A DNA stretch of 62,654 nt, from IMG/VR virus record IMGVR_UViG_3300045988_095058; one strand, 5' to 3'. This DNA comes from a virus. A program made the translations under genes and the position numbers. Positions 13,567 to 62,654 of the stretch are shown here, one piece after another. The notes under the pieces were generated by a model that was not told the origin of the DNA, ran no database searches, and saw only the letters and a program-made list of their open reading frames with translations. Each line of letters opens with the position of its first letter. The stretch's first letter is position 1.

Positions 13567-15372
13567 ATGGGTGCTTTTAAGAGTGCAGTAATCACAAAAA
13601 AAGGACAGGAACTCTTAGCAAAAGTGGTAGCAGGTACTACTAAGCTGGAGTTTACTAAGATCAAGGTATCCGATACTAAGTTATCTGGAGATCTGGCAAG
13701 TATGACAGGTATCGGTACTATCAAACAGGAGGAAAAGGTAGCCTCTGTAGTGAGAAAAAATGGATCTAATGTTACAGTATCCGCTAGTTTCTCTAATCAG
13801 ACCTTAGGGCAGGGTTATTATGTAAGAAACTTAGGACTTTATGCAAATGATCCACAGGCTGGAGAGATCCTCTACAGTATCTCAGTGGCAGATGAGAGTA
13901 CCGCTACAGCGGATTATATGCCTCCATTTAATGGTATCGGTGTAAGCTCCCTTATGGTGGATCTTGTAACAGCGGTATCTAATGCCTCTAGCGTAAAGGT
14001 AAACGTAGATCCTACCGCTGGAGCCACAGTAGCACAGATCGTTAATGTACAGGAGCAGATTGACGATGTTAAGAGCTTTGTAGGCTATGAGAGCTCCGAT
14101 GTATACGGTGTGGAGATTGATTTTCCTAATAGGCGGTTTACCAGAATTGCAGGAGCAGAAAATCTTACCGCTGGAGCTGATTTTGATAAGCTCAATCCGT
14201 GGGGCGGTAGAAAGAGATGCATCTTAGCTGATGATGGTACAGTACTTGCATACAGAGGAGAAACAGGATACACAGAGGCAGGAGCTACTACTGTAGAGCT
14301 TAAAAAGACAGTAGACGGAGCAGAAAAAACCTATGCTAGTGGTACTAAGGTACAGGTAATGGTAGAACAGCCTGTATTTTATGTTAAGGCTGTACCTGTA
14401 AGCTCTAAGAACGCTACCAGCGGTAAGGGTAAGCAGTACACTAAGGGTAGATTTTATATCAGCCCTACACCTAAGGCAGGATTTACAGCTCCTAGAGCCT
14501 TTTACGATAATCACGGTATCGTACAGGATAAGATCTATCTCTCAGCGTTTGAGGGCTGTATTTATGATACAGATGCTAAAAAGTATCTTACAGCGGATGA
14601 GCAGGTAGCGGATTTTGCTACAGATATGCTCTCATCTATTGCAGGTGCTAAGCCAGCCAGTGGACTTACACAGAACCTCACAAGAGCGAATGTGAGAAAG
14701 CTCTGTGCTAACAGAGGTGCAGGCTGGGAAAGTCATAGTATTTTTGCTATGGCGGTTACAGAGTGGCTCCTTATGATTGAGTATGCTAGTTTAGATGCTC
14801 AGCGTAAAGTAGGTAGAGGCGTTTGTGATTTTACCGATGATGGTAAAACTAATATGGCTGTAGTAACAGGTGCTACCTCTGGATTAGGTAATGGATCTGG
14901 TATTGATCCTAACGGTGGTGTAGATGGTAAGTGCTCAGTATCTTACAGAGGAGAAGAAAATCTCTGGGGCAATATCTGGACTTGGCTGGATAAGGTAAAT
15001 ATCTTAGCTAAAGGACAGAATGAGGTATTTGTGCATGAGATCGGAGCTACAGTAGCAGATGATACTACCACAGGATACAAGAGCTTAGGCTATCACTGGA
15101 GCCATAGTAACGGCTATCAAAGTGCCTTTGGTATTGATCCAGAGCATCCAGAGTTACTTATCCCTACAGAGGCTAGTGGATCGGATGTATTCACAGGTAA
15201 CTTTGTATGGCAGAATTACACCTACAACGGTTTCTTGATTGCTAAGTTGGGCGGTCTATGGGGTAGTGGCTCTAGTTGCGGTTTCGATCTGAGTGGTAGT
15301 AGTGCCTCTGGTTATCGCTATCGTAGTATCGGCGGTCGCTTGCTGTATGTGCCTCAAACAAAGGTTGCTTAA
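13567..15372 (+). CDS. Tail fibre protein; the DGR variable (target) protein, with the VR in its C-terminal lectin/FGE-like domain
   Basis: 601 aa. N-terminus looks like a tail-collar fibre domain. C-terminus has the NLWGNIWTW segment typical of FGE/C-type-lectin folds. The last ~42 codons form the VR. Confidence 0.85.
   Translation: MGAFKSAVITKKGQELLAKVVAGTTKLEFTKIKVSDTKLSGDLASMTGIGTIKQEEKVASVVRKNGSNVTVSASFSNQTLGQGYYVRNLGLYANDPQAGEILYSISVADESTATADYMPPFNGIGVSSLMVDLVTAVSNASSVKVNVDPTAGATVAQIVNVQEQIDDVKSFVGYESSDVYGVEIDFPNRRFTRIAGAENLTAGADFDKLNPWGGRKRCILADDGTVLAYRGETGYTEAGATTVELKKTVDGAEKTYASGTKVQVMVEQPVFYVKAVPVSSKNATSGKGKQYTKGRFYISPTPKAGFTAPRAFYDNHGIVQDKIYLSAFEGCIYDTDAKKYLTADEQVADFATDMLSSIAGAKPASGLTQNLTRANVRKLCANRGAGWESHSIFAMAVTEWLLMIEYASLDAQRKVGRGVCDFTDDGKTNMAVVTGATSGLGNGSGIDPNGGVDGKCSVSYRGEENLWGNIWTWLDKVNILAKGQNEVFVHEIGATVADDTTTGYKSLGYHWSHSNGYQSAFGIDPEHPELLIPTEASGSDVFTGNFVWQNYTYNGFLIAKLGGLWGSGSSCGFDLSGSSASGYRYRSIGGRLLYVPQTKVA
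15229..15355 (+). repeat. DGR variable repeat (VR)
   Basis: Aligns to 15463..15589 at a constant offset of 234 nt. 100 of 127 positions are identical, and all 27 differences fall at TR adenines. Confidence 0.9.
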
Positions 15373-15398
15373 ATCTTTGAGGAAAAATAAATAAAATC

Positions 15399-15447
15399 AA
15401 AAAGGGTAATAGGAGGAGCTGGAAAGCTCTTTTTTATTACCCTTTTT
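15399..15447 (+). terminator. Long hairpin plus T-run after the fibre gene; candidate DGR homing-enhancing stem-loop
   Basis: AAAAAGGGTAATA pairs with TATTACCCTTTTT. The inner stem is AGCT/AGCT with a GGAA loop, and GGAGG opposes a T-run (G-U pairs in RNA). Confidence 0.65.
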
Positions 15448-15462
15448 GTCGGTAGCTGATAA

Positions 15463-15589
15463 GGTTTCTTAATTACTAAATTAGGCAGTAAATGGAATAA
15501 TGGCTCTAATTGCAGTTTCAATCTGAATGGTAATAATACCTCTGGTAATCGCAATCGTAATATCAGCAGTCACTTACTATATGTGCATA
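15463..15589 (+). repeat. DGR template repeat (TR)
   Basis: Non-coding and adenine-rich. Read in the VR frame it contains 10 AAT codons. Confidence 0.9.
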
Positions 15590-15872
15590 TAAAAATAAAA
15601 GAAAATCAGAGAAATATGTGTTCACTGTGACACTTATTTTACATTAAGTGAGTAACAGCTACCGTGGCTCTTGCCAGAACATAAAACTCCTCTATGAGGA
15701 GCGGTAAAAAATAGCTAAGAGGGTGCTTATGTGCGGAGAAATCCGTAAACCATGTTAGCCTAGCAAGCTAAGAACTGATTGTTATGTGAACGATAGCACA
15801 GGGGTACTACAGCAGGTAGTTAGCTCCCTCTTATGCACATACAAAATTATGATAAGGTGGGTGCCAAAACAC
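15590..15872 (+). ncRNA. Putative DGR RNA spacer region between the TR and the RT start
   Basis: 283 nt with no convincing ORF. Contains local hairpins such as CTCCTCtatGAGGAG and TTAGCctagcaaGCTAA. Confidence 0.4.
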
Positions 15873-17123
15873 ATGAAAGATACTGGAGATTTATTTTCTA
15901 AGATATGCGATATGGATAATCTTAGAAAAGCCCACAAGAACGCAAAGAGAGGTAAAGGGTGGTATGCAGAGGTAAAGCGTATAGAAAAAGATCTGGATCA
16001 TTACCTAAGGAGGCTACAGGAAAATCTAATAGAACACAGGTATCATACCTCAGACTATGAAACTTTTGTAAGAAAAGAGGGGAGTAAGGAGAGGGAGATT
16101 TATAAGTTACCGTACTATCCAGACCGTATATGTCAATGGGCTATCTTACAGGTTATAGAGCCCTACTTACTTAATTCCATGACAAAAGATACCTATAGTG
16201 CAATCCCTAACAGAGGGATCCAGCCTATTATCAATCAATTACGAGGGTATAAGAAAAAGATTAAGAAAGATGGAAAAGTAGTAGCGGAGAAGTGGATACC
16301 CAGTATTTTAGTATCAGATCCAGAGGCTACAAAGTATTGCTTAAAGCTGGATGTAAGAAAGTATTATCCCAGCATTGTACACGATGTACTAAAGGCTAAG
16401 TATAGAGAGCTCTTTAAGGATGAGGAGCTTATCTGGTTAATGGATGAGATCATAGATAGTATTAGTACTTGTCCAGCCACAGAGGAAAATATAGAGATCC
16501 TCCAGAGGCTAGGTGTGGCGGTAAATATTATCATAGACGATAACGGTAGAGAGTTTGTGGATGGCGTAGGTATTCCTATTGGAAACTATGTTAGCCAGTA
16601 TGACGGTAATTTTAATCTATCTGTAGTAGATCACTGGCTCAAAGAGGTTAAGGGCGTTAAGTACTACTTTAGATACATGGATGATATGGTTATTTTCGGT
16701 AGCAGTAAAGAGGAATTACACAAACTCAAAAGAGAGTTAGATGAGTTTATGGCGGTAAATCTTAAGCAGGTGCTTAAGCATAACTGGCAGGTATTTCCTA
16801 CTAAGGTAAGAGGTGTAGATTTTGTAGGCTATAGATTTTTCGGAGAATATACCTTACTCAGAAAATCGACTTGCAAAACATTTAAGCGTAGGATGCTTAG
16901 CATCTCCAGTAAAAGAGAAAACAATGTGAGCCCTACTTATAGTGAGTGGTGCTCATTTAATAGCTATGTGGGCTGGCTACAGCATTGTGATAGCTTTAGG
17001 CTATACCAGAAATATGTAGAGCCTAATGTAGAATATATGCACAATTATTACTTAAAGGAGGTAAAAGGTAATGCAGAAATTTGTAAACGTAAGAACTACA
17101 GCGGAGAGCGTAAAGCCTCTTGA
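15873..17123 (+). CDS. DGR reverse transcriptase
   Basis: YMDD at 16674..16685 and the DGR-type IGNYVSQ motif at 16578..16598. N-terminus is MKDTGDLFSKICDMDNLRKAHKNAKRGK. The ORF-track start at 15786 is probably a non-coding extension. Confidence 0.9.
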   Translation: MKDTGDLFSKICDMDNLRKAHKNAKRGKGWYAEVKRIEKDLDHYLRRLQENLIEHRYHTSDYETFVRKEGSKEREIYKLPYYPDRICQWAILQVIEPYLLNSMTKDTYSAIPNRGIQPIINQLRGYKKKIKKDGKVVAEKWIPSILVSDPEATKYCLKLDVRKYYPSIVHDVLKAKYRELFKDEELIWLMDEIIDSISTCPATEENIEILQRLGVAVNIIIDDNGREFVDGVGIPIGNYVSQYDGNFNLSVVDHWLKEVKGVKYYFRYMDDMVIFGSSKEELHKLKRELDEFMAVNLKQVLKHNWQVFPTKVRGVDFVGYRFFGEYTLLRKSTCKTFKRRMLSISSKRENNVSPTYSEWCSFNSYVGWLQHCDSFRLYQKYVEPNVEYMHNYYLKEVKGNAEICKRKNYSGERKAS

Positions 17124-17364
17124 GATTGATGATTACCATGTATATGTAAATACAGGTATCAAAGAGATCCATGAGGAGGTTAAGAAGGGAGATCTTAGCT
17201 CTGGGTTTGATGGGTTTGAAATTGAAACACAGGAGATCTATGAGAAAGATGAGTACATCCAGCTCATGGCAGAGAAAAACAGTTCCTTAGAGGAGCAGGC
17301 TACAGATTTACAGTTAGCCTTAGCAGATGTGTATGAGCAGATGTTGGGGTTATCAGCTAACTAA
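17071..17364 (+). CDS. Hypothetical acidic protein in the XkdW position
   Basis: 97 aa, RBS AAAGGAGGTAAAAGGTA, overlaps the RT 3' end by 53 nt. Confidence 0.55.
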   Translation: MQKFVNVRTTAESVKPLEIDDYHVYVNTGIKEIHEEVKKGDLSSGFDGFEIETQEIYEKDEYIQLMAEKNSSLEEQATDLQLALADVYEQMLGLSAN

Positions 17365-17381
17365 GAGGGAGGAGAAAGATT

Positions 17382-17492
17382 ATGGCACAGGTTTACGCTA
17401 CTTTGATCCGCAAAGGGTTAAGGACTATTGATAATATACCAAAGGATCTCAGAAAAGCCGTACAAAAAATCTTAGACGGAGATAATGAGTAG
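17382..17492 (+). CDS. Small protein (36 aa), paralog 1 of a tandem pair
   Basis: MAQVYATLIRKGLRTIDNIPKDLRKAVQKIL. RBS GGGAGGAG. Below the ORF-track cutoff. Confidence 0.5.
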   Translation: MAQVYATLIRKGLRTIDNIPKDLRKAVQKILDGDNE

Positions 17493-17544
17493 TATGTTAC
17501 TCAATATTATCTTAAAAACAATACTCAGAAAGGAGGTAAAGGCT

Positions 17545-17670
17545 ATGGCAGTAATTTACGCTACCCTTATTGTAAAGGGCAAAAAGACGATCAATGATGT
17601 ACCGCCAGTAATCAGAGAGCAGGTTAAGCAGATCCTCATTGATCTTGATTTACCAGAGCTTGCAGAGTAA
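17545..17670 (+). CDS. Small protein (41 aa), paralog 2 of a tandem pair
   Basis: MAVIYATLIVKGKKTINDVPPVIREQVKQIL. RBS AAAGGAGGTAAAGGCT. The track start at 17485 has no RBS. Confidence 0.55.
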   Translation: MAVIYATLIVKGKKTINDVPPVIREQVKQILIDLDLPELAE

Positions 17671-19608: not shown

Positions 19609-21327
19609 ATGGCATACAGGAAAATAACGGATATAAAAGATACTATTGGTATGAGAGCGGTATTTTATGCCAGAGTATCTACAGCGGAGGAGGAACAGCT
19701 AAACGCTATAGAACTCCAGATTGAGGAAAATAGAGGATGTATTAAGGATCATGGCTGGAAACTGGTAGGAGAGTATATTGATCGCAGTAAGAGCGGTACG
19801 ATGGTAAAGGGCAGAGATGATTACCAGAGGCTCTATGAGGATCTGTATGAGGATCTATTTGATATTGTAGTAATCAAGGATCAAGAGAGGCTCCAGAGAA
19901 ATACTCTGGATTGGTACCTCTTTATTAACAGGGTAGTACAGACAGGAAAGCTCCTGTTTATGTATATGGATGGAAAATTTTACTCTCCAGATGATGCTCT
20001 AATCACAGGTGTACGAGCAATCATAGCGGAGGAATTTAGTAGAAATCTTAGTAAGAAACTCCATAACTACCACGATCACAGAATAGAGAAAGCCAGACAG
20101 GGGCAGGAGATAGCCTTACAGGGTAGTGGTAATGTATATGGATGGGATAAAAAGGATGGTAAGTATTATATAAATCCAGAACAGGCTAAGGTAAGGAGGC
20201 TCATGTGTGAGGGAATTATGGCAAGAAAAGGATCTACCCTCATAGCTAAGGAGCTTAATGAGGCTGGATACCGTAACACAGTAGGGAAACTGTGGAAACC
20301 TATGGATATACCTAAATTTGTATATGATTGTAAAAATGTAGGTACCATGATTATAAACAAAGAAAGACATGATTTTGAGAGTAAGCAAACTATAAAACTC
20401 CCTAAGGAGGAGTGGGTATATGTAGAAAACGCTCTCCCTCCGATAGTCACACAGGAGGAGTGGGATCTAATCTGTAAGATCCATGAGGAGAGAGTAATAG
20501 CCACAGGATCCGACAGGAGAGGCAAGAAAACCAGCGGATACTCTTTTAGTGGTAAGCTGGTATGTGGTATCTGTGGGGCTCCTTACTGGAGGAAACAGAG
20601 AGTATCTAAGGATGAGTACTGGGTATGCAGTACAAAGCAGACTAAAGGCAGGAGAACCAGAAAAAGAGATAGCACGATGGGGAAAGCTGGAGAGATAAAT
20701 CCTTTAGGCTGTGATAATGAAAATATCTCTTATAACTCCCTCATGGAGATAATGGGGGTAGTATCAGAGCGATTACAGGCAAATACAGACACAATAAAGC
20801 ATGATATGATAAATTGGCTTACTAAGCTCAGAAAACAGCTCCTAGAGGCAAATGGAGGGCATACAGAGGCAGATCTACAGCGTGAGCTCTCCAGAAAAAG
20901 TAAGTTACTGGATGCCTACTTAGATGGGATCCTAAATAAACAGGAATACCAGAAAAAAGCAGAGGAGTTAGATGAGAGGATCATCCAGCTCAAAGCAGAA
21001 ACAGAAAAGAATAAGGCTAACTCTGGAGATATTGCAGAGATAGATAAGGTACTGGCTAACATAGATGAGGAGGTATCCAGATATGTAGATGGTAATGAGA
21101 AATTAAAAGTAGAATACCTCTTAGAGCACTTAGAGCAGGTACAGATATTCCCAGATAAGGTTATAGTTATAGTGCCGATATTGAGCGAGGGGATAGTAGT
21201 AGAAAAAGCTCAGTATGTATCTAGGGAGAAATGTTCCAAGATACATACTGAAAGCATGATCCACTACTTAGAGGATTATATGTACTGTACTAGAAAACTG
21301 GGGCTTTATGTGCAGTTAGTAGCATAA
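19609..21327 (+). CDS. Large serine recombinase (integrase)
   Basis: Resolvase-type N-terminus VFYARVSTAEEEQ with the catalytic Ser context, a recombinase domain, a Cys-rich zinc ribbon (CGICGAPYWRK...WVCSTK) and a coiled-coil tail. Confidence 0.9.
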   Translation: MAYRKITDIKDTIGMRAVFYARVSTAEEEQLNAIELQIEENRGCIKDHGWKLVGEYIDRSKSGTMVKGRDDYQRLYEDLYEDLFDIVVIKDQERLQRNTLDWYLFINRVVQTGKLLFMYMDGKFYSPDDALITGVRAIIAEEFSRNLSKKLHNYHDHRIEKARQGQEIALQGSGNVYGWDKKDGKYYINPEQAKVRRLMCEGIMARKGSTLIAKELNEAGYRNTVGKLWKPMDIPKFVYDCKNVGTMIINKERHDFESKQTIKLPKEEWVYVENALPPIVTQEEWDLICKIHEERVIATGSDRRGKKTSGYSFSGKLVCGICGAPYWRKQRVSKDEYWVCSTKQTKGRRTRKRDSTMGKAGEINPLGCDNENISYNSLMEIMGVVSERLQANTDTIKHDMINWLTKLRKQLLEANGGHTEADLQRELSRKSKLLDAYLDGILNKQEYQKKAEELDERIIQLKAETEKNKANSGDIAEIDKVLANIDEEVSRYVDGNEKLKVEYLLEHLEQVQIFPDKVIVIVPILSEGIVVEKAQYVSREKCSKIHTESMIHYLEDYMYCTRKLGLYVQLVA

Positions 21328-23475: not shown

Positions 23476-23784
23476 ATGCTTAAAATCAGTTTTACAAATG
23501 CTGAGGTATCGGATCACGGATACGGTTTAGAGGTAAATGGTAAATCCTTAGAGGATATTATCTCTACCGCCTTAGGAACTAAGGTAAAAGGTAATGGCGG
23601 TTACGGATCTGGATTACCTAGCTTTAGCTCTAATAGCTGTGATGTAACGGTTACTATCAATCCACACGATAAAGAGTGTGAGATTGAAATAGAGGATAAC
23701 GTGTGGCACAGCGTAGAGGAAATGGAGGCAGAAAAGAGTGAGCAGTTTCAAAAGGAAAATGCAGAGGCAGATCCAAAAGAATAA
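23476..23784 (+). CDS. Hypothetical protein
   Basis: 102 aa, RBS AAAGGAGGTAAGCAGG. Confidence 0.6.
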   Translation: MLKISFTNAEVSDHGYGLEVNGKSLEDIISTALGTKVKGNGGYGSGLPSFSSNSCDVTVTINPHDKECEIEIEDNVWHSVEEMEAEKSEQFQKENAEADPKE

Positions 23785-25675: not shown

Positions 25676-27022
25676 ATGGCTAATATGATTGAGCAGAGCT
25701 TACTCTGTAAAGTATTAGATGCTCCAGATCTGGAGATCCTCCACTCTAACGGAGTAATAGAGGAGATGTTTCTTACCTGTAAGGATGAGATCCATTTTAT
25801 CATAGAGCATTACAACAGCTATAAGCAGATGCCAGATAAACTAACCTTTTTAGGCAGGTTCAAAGATTTTCAAATGCTGGAGGTTACAGAGAGTACAGAT
25901 TACTTAGTATATAAGCTCAAAGAGGCTTACACATATACTAAGCTGGTGCCTCTGATTGAGGATACAGCAAAGGTAGTAAAAGAGGATAGTATTAAGGCTA
26001 TCCAGTACCTCAAAGAGGAGATAGAAAAGCTGGAGAAATCCGTACCAGTGAGCAGGAATAAAGATGGCTATGATATTATCTCTAACGCTGGAGATCGCCT
26101 TACAGAGTATAAAAAGCGTTGTGAGGTAAAGGGGCTTATAGGTATTCCTACAGGTATCCCTAAGCTGGATGAGATTACTAATGGCTGGCTCTGGGGAGAG
26201 GATCTGGTAGTACTCACAGGGCGTACTAACGTAGGTAAAACGTGGATCGGAGAGTACTTTGCTACTATGGCGTGGAACATGGGTTATAAGATCCTTATGT
26301 ACTCTGGAGAAATGAGTACCGCTATGGTTGGTTTTCGTTTTGATACTCTCAATAAGCACTTTAGTAATATGGGGCTCCTTAATGGATCTGGTACTCTGGG
26401 AAAGAAACCAGATACAGACGGAGCAAAGTACTTACAGGAGGATTATGAGAAGTACATAACACAGCTCCAGCAAAAGAGCGGATTTATCGTAGTTACTCCA
26501 GATGATTTTGAGGGGCGTAAGCCTAATGTAGATGAGATCAAGAGCTTAGCTATTAAGCATGGGGCGGATATGATTGTAATAGATCAGCTCTCTCTTATGA
26601 GTGATAAGCGTAGGGCGGATATACCTAGAATAGCTTATAATAATATCTCAGAGGATCTCTTTTTGATGAGTAAGGAGCTTAAAAAGCCTGTACTCCTTAT
26701 GGCACAGGCTAACCGTGAGGCAGTTAAGAACCGTAAAAAAGGGGAGAGCCCAGAGCTCCACGATCTGGCAGAGAGTGACGGTGTAGGACAGAACGCCACA
26801 AGAGTATTATCTCTATCCGTGATAGATGGCACTCTTAAGATCAGTGTTAAGAAAAACAGATATGGTATCAATAACAAAGAGGTACTTATGATCTGGGAAG
26901 TAAACACAGGATACCTTAAGCCCCTCCTTAGTGAAAATCCAGAGGAGAGCACAGAGGATAAAAAGGATGATAAATCAGATGGAGAAAAGGATAAAGGAGG
27001 AGAGAAAGACTATGGTTTCTAA
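25676..27022 (+). CDS. dnaB: Replicative DNA helicase (DnaB family)
   Basis: 448 aa, Walker A GRTNVGKTW, with DnaB-like N- and C-terminal organisation. Confidence 0.85.
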   Translation: MANMIEQSLLCKVLDAPDLEILHSNGVIEEMFLTCKDEIHFIIEHYNSYKQMPDKLTFLGRFKDFQMLEVTESTDYLVYKLKEAYTYTKLVPLIEDTAKVVKEDSIKAIQYLKEEIEKLEKSVPVSRNKDGYDIISNAGDRLTEYKKRCEVKGLIGIPTGIPKLDEITNGWLWGEDLVVLTGRTNVGKTWIGEYFATMAWNMGYKILMYSGEMSTAMVGFRFDTLNKHFSNMGLLNGSGTLGKKPDTDGAKYLQEDYEKYITQLQQKSGFIVVTPDDFEGRKPNVDEIKSLAIKHGADMIVIDQLSLMSDKRRADIPRIAYNNISEDLFLMSKELKKPVLLMAQANREAVKNRKKGESPELHDLAESDGVGQNATRVLSLSVIDGTLKISVKKNRYGINNKEVLMIWEVNTGYLKPLLSENPEESTEDKKDDKSDGEKDKGGEKDYGF

Positions 27023-27233
27023 AGGCGGAGTACCTAAGGGGAGGATCATCCCTGTATATCTTACAGATGAGGGAGATGTGTACCCTATTTATTTACATGA
27101 GATGGGAGAGTTAGAGATTATACAGAGGCTTGTAGCAGGTATCTTAGATAATAAAATTGTGGTAGATACTAATACCAGAATTAACTCAGAGAATGATAAA
27201 ATCTCTATTTTTGATTTAAGTAAGAAAAAATAA
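27012..27233 (+). CDS. Hypothetical protein
   Basis: 73 aa from ATG 27012, preceded by AAAGGAGGAGAG. The track start at 26931 lies inside dnaB. Confidence 0.5.
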   Translation: MVSKGGVPKGRIIPVYLTDEGDVYPIYLHEMGELEIIQRLVAGILDNKIVVDTNTRINSENDKISIFDLSKKK

Positions 27234-29178: not shown

Positions 29179-29565
29179 ATGAATTTAGCAGAGTTAAAGG
29201 AGGCTTATAAAGCCAGAAAGTTAGCCTTAGACAGTGCAAAGAAAGAGGAGGAGAAATACAAGGCACTCCTTAAGGATGCGATGTTAGAGGCTGGAGAAAG
29301 TGATTACACGGATGAGGCTGGATACCGCTTTGAGCGAATTGTGCAGGAGCGTAAGAGCATGGATGAGGAAAAGCTCTTAGCAGAACTCCATGAGAGAAAC
29401 CTTACTAGCTGTATCGCAACTAAGGAGGTTGTAGATGAGGATGCAACTCTTAAGGCGGTAGAGGCTGGAGAGTTGCCACAGGAAGTATTAGCAGATGCCT
29501 TAAAGGTAACAGAGGTAGTAATGCTTAAGCTCACAGCTCCTAAAAAGGCAAAGGCTAAAAAGTGA
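29179..29565 (+). CDS. Hypothetical early protein
   Basis: 128 aa, first gene of the rightward operon. Coiled-coil with a lysine-rich tail. Confidence 0.6.
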   Translation: MNLAELKEAYKARKLALDSAKKEEEKYKALLKDAMLEAGESDYTDEAGYRFERIVQERKSMDEEKLLAELHERNLTSCIATKEVVDEDATLKAVEAGELPQEVLADALKVTEVVMLKLTAPKKAKAKK

Positions 29566-38412: not shown

Positions 38413-38875
38413 TAACATCGGTAAAACCTTTGAGCAGGAGTTTAAGGAGTGTGTACCTCCAGATTATTACCTGTATCGCCTAAAGGATGATACAAGCGGA
38501 TTTTATGGAGTATCTAATCCATGTGATTATATTCTTTTCAGATCTCCTTATCTCTTTCTGGTAGAGCTTAAAACCCATAAGGGAAAGAGTATACCGATAG
38601 CTAAGATCAGACCTAACCAGATACAGGGGATGGAGAAAGCTACTCAATATGAGGGAGTGTATGGAGGCTTTTTAATCAATTTTAGAGAGCTGGAGGAAAC
38701 ATATTACATAACCGTACAGGATGTGATCCAGTTTACTCAGACGGAGGAGAGAAAGAGTATACCTGTAGAGTGGTGCAGGGATCACGGAGTAAAGATAGAG
38801 CAGAAAAAGAAAAGAGTGAGATACAGCTACGATTTGGAGAGCTGGTTAAGGAGGTACTATGGAAAATCCATGTAG
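38402..38875 (+). CDS. RecU-like Holliday junction resolvase
   Basis: GKTFEQEF...NPCDYILF...LVELKTHKG is a PD-(D/E)XK pattern typical of RecU. Confidence 0.55.
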   Translation: MASNNIGKTFEQEFKECVPPDYYLYRLKDDTSGFYGVSNPCDYILFRSPYLFLVELKTHKGKSIPIAKIRPNQIQGMEKATQYEGVYGGFLINFRELEETYYITVQDVIQFTQTEERKSIPVEWCRDHGVKIEQKKKRVRYSYDLESWLRRYYGKSM

Positions 38876-39161
38876 TAATTGTGACAGTACATCAATGGAG
38901 ATGTGTTTACTTATTAGACATTGTGAGCACTTTGTAACAAAGAAATCTAAAGAGGAGAGCAGGTGTAAAGATTATGTAGGAGTTACCTGTGTAAATGGTG
39001 GATGCCCTAACGCTATGGCGGATGAGTACCCAGAGTATGGCTATGAACATTGTACCTGTGAGGAGTGTGGATATTATAAGGGCTGTGAGGATTGTGCCTT
39101 AGCAGGTACAGAGCATTGTAATAAGGCTCCTACAGGAGGAGGTAAAGATGGTACAGAGTGA
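38859..39161 (+). CDS. Cys-rich hypothetical protein
   Basis: 100 aa with many CxxC-type pairs. Confidence 0.5.
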   Translation: MENPCSNCDSTSMEMCLLIRHCEHFVTKKSKEESRCKDYVGVTCVNGGCPNAMADEYPEYGYEHCTCEECGYYKGCEDCALAGTEHCNKAPTGGGKDGTE

Positions 39162-39699
39162 TAAATTAAAGAAAATCATAGCAGAGGTAAAAGAGGAGAG
39201 CTCCCCTGTAATAACCCTCTCAAATGAGTTAATAGCAGATTTTAGTAAGGAGCTTGATAGTGCTATCTCAGAGCTGGATATGATTATGGAAAGCATAGGA
39301 GAAAACTCTATAGAGGATATACCAGATAGCCAGATAGAGTATTACTGTGTTAAGATCCCAGCCCTTATGTACTATGCAGGGCAGAGAGTAGAGGAGCTGG
39401 GTATGCAGGTAGATCTAGCCTCTAACGCTAAGAAAAGTGCTCAAAATGAGGCGATGGTAAAAGTATCTGGTACTGTGCAGGAGAAGAAAGCCAGAGTAGA
39501 ACAGCTCACAGAGGACAAAGCTTTAGTAGAGGCTATTTATCGTAGAGCTTACAACAGCCTCAAAGTTAAGTTAGAGATGGCTGAGAAGATCTACAGCGGA
39601 TTAAAGAAATCTCTCTCAAAGAGGATAGCAGAGGTAGATCTGGATAGATTTAGTAAGGATAAATATACCAGAGAGCCAGAGGATCCTATGGAGGAGTAA
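39148..39699 (+). CDS. Hypothetical coiled-coil protein
   Basis: 183 aa ORF. Confidence 0.55.
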   Translation: MVQSDKLKKIIAEVKEESSPVITLSNELIADFSKELDSAISELDMIMESIGENSIEDIPDSQIEYYCVKIPALMYYAGQRVEELGMQVDLASNAKKSAQNEAMVKVSGTVQEKKARVEQLTEDKALVEAIYRRAYNSLKVKLEMAEKIYSGLKKSLSKRIAEVDLDRFSKDKYTREPEDPMEE

Positions 39700-62534: not shown

Positions 62535-62565
62535 ACTACTAGCGTTATGCTGGTAGTTTTTTTTT
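62535..62565 (+). terminator. Rho-independent terminator
   Basis: ACTACTAGC-gttat-GCTGGTAGT (one G-U pair) followed by T9. Confidence 0.75.
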
Positions 62566-62654
62566 GCTCTGAAATAAAAATCTAAAGAAACTGAAAAAAG
62601 ATTACATAGTAAATACATATTTTCTCCAGATATTTACCCTAACTTATGTAGAAA
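62556..62654. repeat. Terminal direct repeat, right copy (identical to 1..99)
   Basis: Read directly; 99 of 99 nt identical. Confidence 0.95.

Follow-up and report, generated by a model that had tools for sequence, protein, structure and literature searches.

Organization of the cassette

The window studied here is the whole of a viral DNA stretch of 62,654 nucleotides (nt; IMG/VR record IMGVR_UViG_3300045988_095058), in which a diversity-generating retroelement (DGR) lies at the end of a tail-fibre gene. This work concerns the non-coding spacer between the template repeat (TR) and the reverse transcriptase (RT) gene of this element, in which no accessory gene avd was found. Because its first 99 nt recur at its end (1-99 being identical to 62556-62654), the window is a complete phage genome of ca. 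62.55 kb, terminally redundant or circular. It encodes a terminase, an SPP1-type portal, an SU10-type capsid, tail sheath and baseplate proteins, lysis genes and a serine recombinase (at 19609..21327), and its nearest prophage copies were found in metagenome-assembled genomes of Lachnospiraceae, Roseburia and Clostridium. The phage hosting the DGR is a temperate Lachnospiraceae myovirus.

The cassette runs in the order tail-fibre target with its variable repeat (VR), hairpin, TR, non-coding spacer and RT (Table 1), as originally predicted, and the position and length of the gap of 283 nt were confirmed. The VR occupies the last ca. 50 codons of the tail-fibre gene, and within the repeat all mismatches between TR and VR fall on adenines of the TR, 25 in the core and 28 across the 129-nt run. 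The RT aligned end to end with bRT of BPP-1 (29% identity), sharing with it the motifs GIPIG(N/S)xxSQ, which reads GIPIGNYVSQ here, and YMDD. Family matches and this alignment point to an RT of the DGR clade, and the element is a bona fide DGR.

The gap between TR and RT (15590-15872) contains trivial open reading frames (ORFs) only, in agreement with the prediction that it holds no meaningful gene. A minus-strand ORF of 61 amino acids (aa; 15369..15554) matched no family in Pfam- and PHROG-type scans. An N-terminally extended RT ORF starting at the in-frame GTG at 15786 was rejected because close relatives, one of them 99% identical, carry stop codons there. Searching GenBank phages with the DNA of the cassette returned nothing useful.

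Table 1. Positions of the genes, repeats and RNA elements of the cassette in the window (bp, base pairs; pI, isoelectric point)
Feature	Position	Strand	Description
DGR target gene	13567..15372	+	601-aa phage tail-fibre protein with VR at 3' end; PF12571 N-terminal; phrog_5302 tail protein, 1e-157
VR	15227..15355	+	129-nt run matching TR save at TR adenines
Long hairpin	15398..15448	+	Inverted repeat read from the sequence: 14-bp perfect outer arms, inner GAGCT-GGAA-AGCTC, then T6
U strand CGGTAGCTG	15450..15458	+	Few nt upstream of TR; 9-nt perfect complement of S1 (15656-64)
TR	15461..15589	+	Template copy, 234 nt from VR
T3 strand TATGTGCATA	15580..15589	+	TR 3' end; pairs with S2; proposed template side of a template:primer duplex
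P0 hairpin CACTTA...TAAGTG	15631..15650	+	Clade-specific; 80% paired, weak covariation; absent from minimal relatives (L057 and others)
S1 strand CAGCTACCG	15656..15664	+	Pairs with U and directly abuts P1; putative counterpart of the BPP-1 cPRT-Stop strand
P1 hairpin TGGC-TCTT-GCCA and A-rich tail GAACATAAAA	15665..15686	+	RT-17 hallmark; P1 helix 15665-76
P2 hairpin CTCCTC-TAT-GAGGAG (CTCCTCtatGAGGAG)	15687..15701	+	At the site of the larger RT-17 P2; compensatory changes in 3 pairs
Single-stranded GGUAAAAAA	15703..15711	+	Invariant in 14 sequences; related to GGaaauaaaAAAA of the RT-17 consensus
Inserted RNA domain	15716..15833	+	ca. 118 nt; clade-specific; closed by helix A; absent from RT-17-sized spacers
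Helix A (long-range)	15718-23:15826-31, extended 15725-27:15822-24	+	100% paired; compensatory changes in 5/9 pairs
Internal TATGTGC, within GTGCYTATGTGC	15728-34	+	Invariant copy of the TR-end heptamer; partly 5' strand of P4
P4	15732-36:15743-47	+	100% paired; 2 compensatory pairs
Window-subclade hairpin TTAGCctagcaaGCTAA	15755-15771	+	Inside the inserted domain
P6	15806-10:15816-20	+	100% paired; 2 compensatory pairs
S2 strand TATGCACATA	15832..15841	+	Last spacer element, then CAAAA; pairs with T3; proposed primer side
RT ribosome-binding site AAGGTGGG	15854-61	+	Upstream of RT start
RT	15873..17123	+	416 aa, pI 9.0; PF00078, phrog_1423
Small acidic gene	17071..17364	+	97 aa, pI 4.3; overlaps RT 3' end by 53 nt

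Activity of the element

In nine near-identical phages the TR, the spacer and the RT were 100, 99.4 and 99.3% identical, respectively, whereas the VR was merely 85.9% identical, and the 599 pairwise differences observed between VRs were all located at TR-adenine positions. Because the VRs of near-identical phages thus differ at TR adenines only, the DGR is active in nature, and it is so without an avd gene in its cassette. Substitutions showed a strong bias from A to G (21/25 in the VR of the window).

Absence of avd from the cassette and from the phage genome

No ORF of the phage genome with a length of 85-260 aa matched the Avd families PF05635 or PF22296 (Pfam, E <= 0.01-0.1), which bears out the prediction that no Avd-like gene stands beside the TR and extends it to the rest of the genome. 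The search relied on Pfam; a search with the Avd protein of BPP-1 recovered close relatives only (at least 64% identity, carrying PF22296) and gave no broad profile. Neighbours of the cassette included no member of the HRDC, MSL, CH1 or avd families.

An RT-guided search of IMG/VR yielded 79 loci (numbered with the prefix L) with RT identities of 37-100%. Every locus with a detected TR/VR pair showed the arrangement target/VR, TR, spacer and RT, so that the layout is found in more than 60 related loci, and these belong to siphovirus-type prophages as well as to myovirus types. The VR-TR distance is mostly 180-320 nt and the spacer measures 100-317 nt in these loci, both too short for an avd gene to fit in the cassette. 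Larger VR-TR distances, of 564-599 nt, were observed in L066, L069, L071, L073 and L076, and L070, L075 and L076 are among the distant relatives with a larger distance or with two VR copies per TR; these arrangements may reflect a second target or an additional gene that separates VR from TR. At the level of genes, the window cassette has the TR-RT core free of avd, HRDC, MSL and CH1 that defines the accessory-free Architecture A1, and it lacks the avd gene, for a basic protein forming a four-helix-bundle pentamer, that defines the canonical BPP-1-type Architecture B (avd-TR-RT), there being no ORF other than the trivial ones between target and RT.

A structured RNA in the spacer

To describe the spacer RNA, 14 sequences of the window's clade (RT identity 75-100%) were aligned, and the structure was derived both with RNAalifold and as a hand-specified fold, which agreed on the helices listed in Table 1. 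Alone, the spacer folds better than shuffled sequences (z = -2.4). Over the 14 sequences, 94.9% of the cells of 54 pairs were paired, versus 31-47% when partners were slid, and 20 pairs showed compensatory changes on both sides, as against 3-7 in the controls with slid partners; the observed values were not reached in any of 500 shuffles. Covariation of the spacer across related DGRs, which the original prediction had set as a check on the functionality of this region, is therefore observed, and the spacer is likely to be a functional cis-acting DGR RNA, conserved and covarying.

The core of this RNA (15656-15712) resembles the Rfam motif RT-17 (RF03020). The match in the window itself (15660-15721; 21.8 bits, E = 0.1-0.46) lies below the gathering threshold of 40.4, and matches above threshold (41-60 bits) were obtained in the TR-RT spacers of L047, L049, L053, L057, L175, L176 and L181, relatives with 39-52% RT identity. 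Almost all related spacers carry the hallmark of RT-17, in which AAAC comes after a 4-bp hairpin UGSC-NNNN-GSCA. In the window the core lies directly upstream of the RT and consists of P1, an A-rich linker and a second hairpin, an arrangement proper to RT-17, and P1 shows a G-C to C-G swap in 6/14 sequences. The spacer core of the window is best called a divergent, expanded relative of RT-17.

RT-17 is one of the motifs RT-1 to RT-19 described near RT genes by Weinberg et al. (NAR 2017, PMC5737381), who assigned no function to it; only RT-10 was tied to a DGR, that of BPP-1, and it was speculated that some others might have a role in DGRs. In other DGR RT clades (L191:1409-1486, L200:2623-2784 and L055:1865-1926) we observed other Rfam RT motifs above threshold: RT-18 lies just 5' of a Ruminococcaceae RT, and RT-14 lies 3' of a Clostridium RT. 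L055 has an additional RAGATH-18 match upstream of its DGR. These cases point to several of the orphan RT-n motifs as DGR spacer RNAs.

Between the RT-17 core and its 3' tail, the spacer of the window clade contains the inserted domain. The two short hairpins first noticed in the spacer, CTCCTCtatGAGGAG and TTAGCctagcaaGCTAA, both exist. The complementary segments described at the same time exist as well, 1-2 nt away from the positions quoted for them: TAAGAGGG at 15716-23, TATGTGC at 15728-34, CCCTCTTA at 15826-33 and GCACATA at 15835-41. Of the pairings in swapped order proposed for them, TAAGAGGG with CCCTCTTA is a genuine covarying helix, helix A. The other would join GCACATA to the internal TATGTGC; it was discarded as the principal pairing because the compensatory changes of GCACATA track the end of the TR, TATGTGCATA, and because linkers of 1 nt and 4 nt beside helix A would be unfavourable. 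The internal heptamer could nevertheless compete with the TR end for S2 and act as an on/off switch, a pairing to which covariation lends no support. A junction helix TACC:GGTA proposed by RNAalifold was set aside in favour of the U:S1 duplex described below, because an invariant helix gives no evidence whereas U:S1 covaries.

Spacer and RT lengths rise together across clades (Spearman's rho 0.75-0.87, over few independent clades), from ca. 101-120 nt with RTs of 320-352 aa, through 207 nt with 376 aa, to 226-317 nt with 410-425 aa. With respect to the RTs of minimal relatives (L028, L057, L070), that of the window has a Lys-rich insert of 19 aa, GYKKKIKKDGKVVAEKWIP (residues ca. 126-144), and another of 31 aa (ca. 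200-231). As the clade with the 118-nt RNA domain is also the one with RT inserts, this hints at a joint expansion of RNA and protein.

Two long-range duplexes bracket the template

Two strands of the spacer are complementary to the flanks of the TR. At the 3' end, T3 and S2 form a duplex of 10 bp that was predicted by RNAalifold unprompted and that covaries within and between clades; in L015 and L017 a compensatory change pairs GCGTAT with ATACGC, and in L018, L019, L022 and L026 the duplex is extended. At the 5' side, U and S1 form a duplex with strong covariation, of 9 bp in the window and 9-16 bp elsewhere, which abuts P1 and the A-rich sequence.

Both duplexes differ wholly in sequence between clades while complementarity is kept within each locus. 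For U:S1, clades have GGTTGAAAGAACT/GGTTCTTTCAACC, AGGCAAGTAAAATA/TATTTTACTTGCCT, GGCTCGGGGTT/AACCCCGGGCC, GGCCGGCAAT/ATTGCCGGCC, AGGCAATTATAGT/ACTATAATTGCCT or GGTTTGGGATAA/TTATTCCAAACC, and for T3:S2 they have CATGTATTTTT/AAAAATACATG, TCTTTGTAT/ATACAAAGA, CTTTGTGT/ACACAAAG, ATGTTTAT/ATAAACAT or ATGTGCAAA/TTTGCACAT. When 13 clade representatives were compared, complementarity with the own locus exceeded that with other loci in 5000/5000 permutations for both duplexes. The pattern was found again in independent genome-derived loci and in the phage Perkons, where U:S1 reaches 16 bp. Because the putative primer strand S2 sits 3' of the putative stop strand S1, U:S1 and T3:S2 cross, giving a pseudoknot topology. 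The pseudoknot of the original prediction thus exists as a crossing topology, formed by these two duplexes and not by two segments of the spacer.

At the last five TR adenines before the T3 duplex (TR 15565-15579, corresponding to VR 15331-15345), 18-20 of the 20 distinct VRs have G, and these sites include two silent third-codon positions. Such a pattern would result from fixed differences or from a marked bias from A to G close to where synthesis of the complementary DNA (cDNA) starts.

Flanking elements and the gene downstream of the RT

The long hairpin at 15398-15448 immediately follows the target gene, and a single nucleotide separates it from the U strand. It could be a terminator, a counterpart of the hairpin beside the VR of BPP-1 that target recognition requires, or the point at which the DGR RNA begins on its 5' side; a scan for promoters and terminators gave no + strand prediction in 15200-17500. 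A direct repeat, GATAAGGT, occurs at 15458-15465, after the U strand, and at 15851-15858, just before or overlapping the ribosome-binding site of the RT, maybe by chance.

The small gene that overlaps the end of the RT gene encodes an acidic protein of 97 aa. No match to it was found in Pfam, in the PDB or in GenBank phages. Its family comprises at least 940 members of 88-97 aa with a conserved motif Y-x-KDEYI ... TDTQLAL-x-E-x-YE, and in clades of ca. 40-100% RT identity the gene lies directly behind the RT or overlaps it. With a distant member of the family as seed, a search returned 79 loci, of which 48 had an RT directly upstream and 31 had none within 3 kb upstream; in most of the RT-less loci examined, the gene lies directly after a homologue of the same tail-fibre family. 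More distant RT-17-type DGRs have no detectable homologue. In the window the gene occupies an xkdW-like slot before two tandem XkdX/CD1375-like mini-genes (17382-17492 and 17545-17670; 36 and 41 aa; phrog_1382), which are in turn followed by XhlA-like, holin and lysin genes. The description of this gene as acidic, not Avd-like and placed where XkdW would be is thereby upheld. Because in 31/79 loci it stands behind a tail fibre without an RT, the gene is a phage tail-module gene, in front of which the TR-RT cassette was inserted, and not a DGR accessory.

A model for retrohoming by RNA and RT

Combined, these results indicate that the element is probably an accessory-free DGR in which the spacer, together with ca. 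10 nt upstream of the TR, works as a cis-acting DGR RNA. In the proposed mechanism, S2 would pair with the 3' end of the TR and place A15841, or a spacer nucleotide adjacent to it, opposite the template, and the RT would cis-prime from the end of S2, copying from about A15579. S1 would pair with the segment upstream of the TR and, with P1 and the adenosines, may form a roadblock that ends the cDNA at the 5' edge of the TR, and P2 and the inserted domain may be grapples that bind the RT. Since RNA and RT alone would do the positioning, the Avd-binding stem-loop would be dispensable. The functions given to S2, as supplier of the primer, and to U:S1, as the stop for the RT, are inferred by analogy with BPP-1. 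Synthesis of cDNA between the two duplexes fits the repeats of the window, because VR/TR homology starts 3-5 nt after the U strand, differences at TR adenines reach as far as 15579, the base immediately 5' of T3, and A15581, inside the T3 duplex, is never changed.

Several observations weigh against this model. Priming from the end of S2 is pure analogy. Position 15579 is G in 20/20 VRs and may be a fixed difference and not a mutagenised site, so that the 3' boundary of mutagenesis is suggestive only; demonstrable variability is limited to 15576 and positions further 5'. T3:S2 is just 5 bp long in the clade of 54% identity (L028-like), in the clade of the window both of its strands are largely invariant, and the last nucleotide of S2 on its 3' side differs between clades (A, G or U). 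A family as poorly conserved as Avd would be detected more readily by HHpred or fold comparison than by Pfam, the scans covered the phage genome, and several phage ORFs of 100-180 aa are without annotation.

These last points bear on the possibility that an Avd-like partner was missed, be it the product of an unannotated small phage ORF or a four-helix-bundle protein of the host acting in trans, and that the element works as BPP-1 does. Avd proteins are indeed very poorly conserved (Wu et al., PMC5758913), and ORFs such as 23476-23781, 26931-27230, 38859-39158, 39148-39696 and 29179-29562 have no Pfam match. We nevertheless regard such a partner as improbable, in view of the negative scans of the phage genome for both Avd families, of the lack of room for avd in more than 60 related loci of myovirus and siphovirus backgrounds, and of the minimal relatives, whose spacers begin without a stem-loop like the one that binds Avd in BPP-1; moreover, profile searches of the whole genomes of avd-less DGRs by Wu et al. 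(PMC5758913) found none. The 97-aa protein, for its part, could replace Avd, like the small acidic CH1 of Avd-less Bacteroides DGRs: it is acidic, as CH1 is (PMC5758913), it belongs to no known family and its gene keeps its place behind the RT in different phage types. This is slightly less probable still, given the RT-less loci, a third or so of the family, in which the gene stands behind a homologous tail-fibre gene, the absence of detectable homologues from distant RT-17-type DGRs and the xkdW-like slot before XkdX-like and lysis genes. With no match in the PDB, Pfam or GenBank phages, and a third of its homologues without a nearby RT, the protein was rejected as an accessory factor.

The spacer might also be a 5' untranslated region or regulatory leader for expression of the RT, a transcription or translation switch operated by the duplicated TATGTGC and having no direct role in priming. 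Its position directly upstream of the RT start would suit a leader, the invariant internal heptamer could compete for S2, and RT-17 was first described merely as a motif near RT genes (PMC5737381). Against this, both covarying duplexes bracket the TR, which a leader of the RT would not need, no supported helix sequesters the ribosome-binding site of the RT, and the order of elements mirrors the priming and stop elements of BPP-1; of the alternatives considered, we give this one the least credence. Beyond the model of a cis-acting spacer RNA in the window, a broader generalization seems to us evenly balanced between true and false, namely that RT-17-type RNAs are the equivalent of the spacer RNA throughout an entire Avd-less DGR lineage, in phages of Bacillota and Bacteroidota, the RNA alone doing the job of the BPP-1 RNA plus Avd by means of permuted, pseudoknotted stop and primer strands, and RNA and RT having expanded together in the clade of the window.

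Comparison with known systems

The gene layout of the element is already known and is ordinary for phages of gut Bacillota. Wu, Gingery, Abebe et al. (NAR 2018, PMC5758913) assigned 75/372 DGRs (29%) to Architecture A, consisting of TR and RT without an accessory gene, found no avd elsewhere in those genomes, recognized one lineage (Lineage 3) without avd and proposed Avd-independent homing. The suggestion that the window carries an Avd-independent variant therefore stands in that no Avd was found, and falls in its implied novelty, since both such elements and the idea of their homing precede it. With Architecture A1 the window shares the order target-TR-RT, the lack of avd, HRDC, MSL and CH1, a phage location, a tail-fibre target and adenine-specific VR/TR differences; there is no essential difference at the gene level, and the RNA was not described by Wu et al.

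Similarity to RT-17 comprises the location directly upstream of a related RT, the P1 hairpin UGSC-NNNN-GSCA, the AAAC/A-rich stretch, the second hairpin, GGUAAAA and the 3' tail. The window differs in that P2 is cut to a simple 6-bp hairpin, that the 118-nt domain precedes the 3' tail, and that a stretch of ca. 66 nt, which includes one more hairpin, stands before the motif. The closest cultured phage is Psychrobacillus phage Perkons (MT325768), whose RT is 45.6% identical and whose cassette has target, TR, a 163-nt spacer and RT, with no avd annotated, an RT-17-like RNA (31.4 bits) and a T3:S2 of 7 bp beside its long U:S1. By contrast to the window, Perkons measures 137 kb and has another host, its spacer is without the 118-nt insert, and no homologue of the 97-aa protein was detected.

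About a quarter to a third of DGRs are without Avd, and mechanistic work has so far all been done on the RT-Avd system of BPP-1. A motif that is catalogued but listed without function sits in the spacers of Avd-less DGRs and pairs with both flanks of the template, which leads to predictions testable by compensatory mutations, with Perkons as a cultured phage for the purpose. For the stop duplex of BPP-1, such a rescue was unsuccessful. If the broader generalization holds, it would provide the first concrete mechanistic model of Avd-independent mutagenic retrohoming, and a self-sufficient pair of RT and RNA would be a smaller, two-part system, simplifying mutagenesis tools that are now built on bRT plus Avd.

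In BPP-1 (bioRxiv 10.1101/2023.10.23.563531) the 140-nt spacer, Sp, whose motif is Rfam RT-10 (Handa et al. 2018; 10.1101/2023.10.23.563531), begins with the Avd-binding stem-loop, followed by a primer strand that pairs with TR 117-129 and ends at the priming A56 and, 2 nt further on, by the cPRT Stop strand, which pairs upstream of the TR; then come a short stem-loop with A-minor adenosines, a single-stranded 'thumb ring' and a long RT-binding stem-loop (10.1101/2023.10.23.563531). In the window the order is S1, P1, adenosines, linker, P2, GGUAAAAAA, inserted domain and S2. Each element has its counterpart, save that the window lacks the Avd-binding stem-loop and that its primer strand has moved to the 3' end. 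In both systems the spacer pairs with the 3' end of the TR and also with the segment upstream of the TR; the latter duplex leads directly into a short stem-loop with adenosines, another stem-loop lies further downstream, and mutagenesis is confined to the stretch between the two duplexes. They differ in that minimal relatives of the window have no hairpin between TR and S1, where the 5' Avd-binding stem-loop would be, and in that the strands of BPP-1 come as primer then stop, 2 nt apart and nested, whereas those of the window come as stop then primer, 75-170 nt apart and crossing. There is no sequence similarity between the two spacers, and the RT has 328 aa in BPP-1 and 416 aa in the window. 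The survey of RNA elements by Handa et al. was limited to 278 DGRs having Avd (10.1101/2023.10.23.563531), and no description of the RNA of Avd-less DGRs was found in the searchable literature (open-access papers and preprints). What may be new is thus the reading at the RNA level, in which RT-17 is the spacer RNA of Avd-less DGRs and presents the stop and primer strands of BPP-1 in permuted order.

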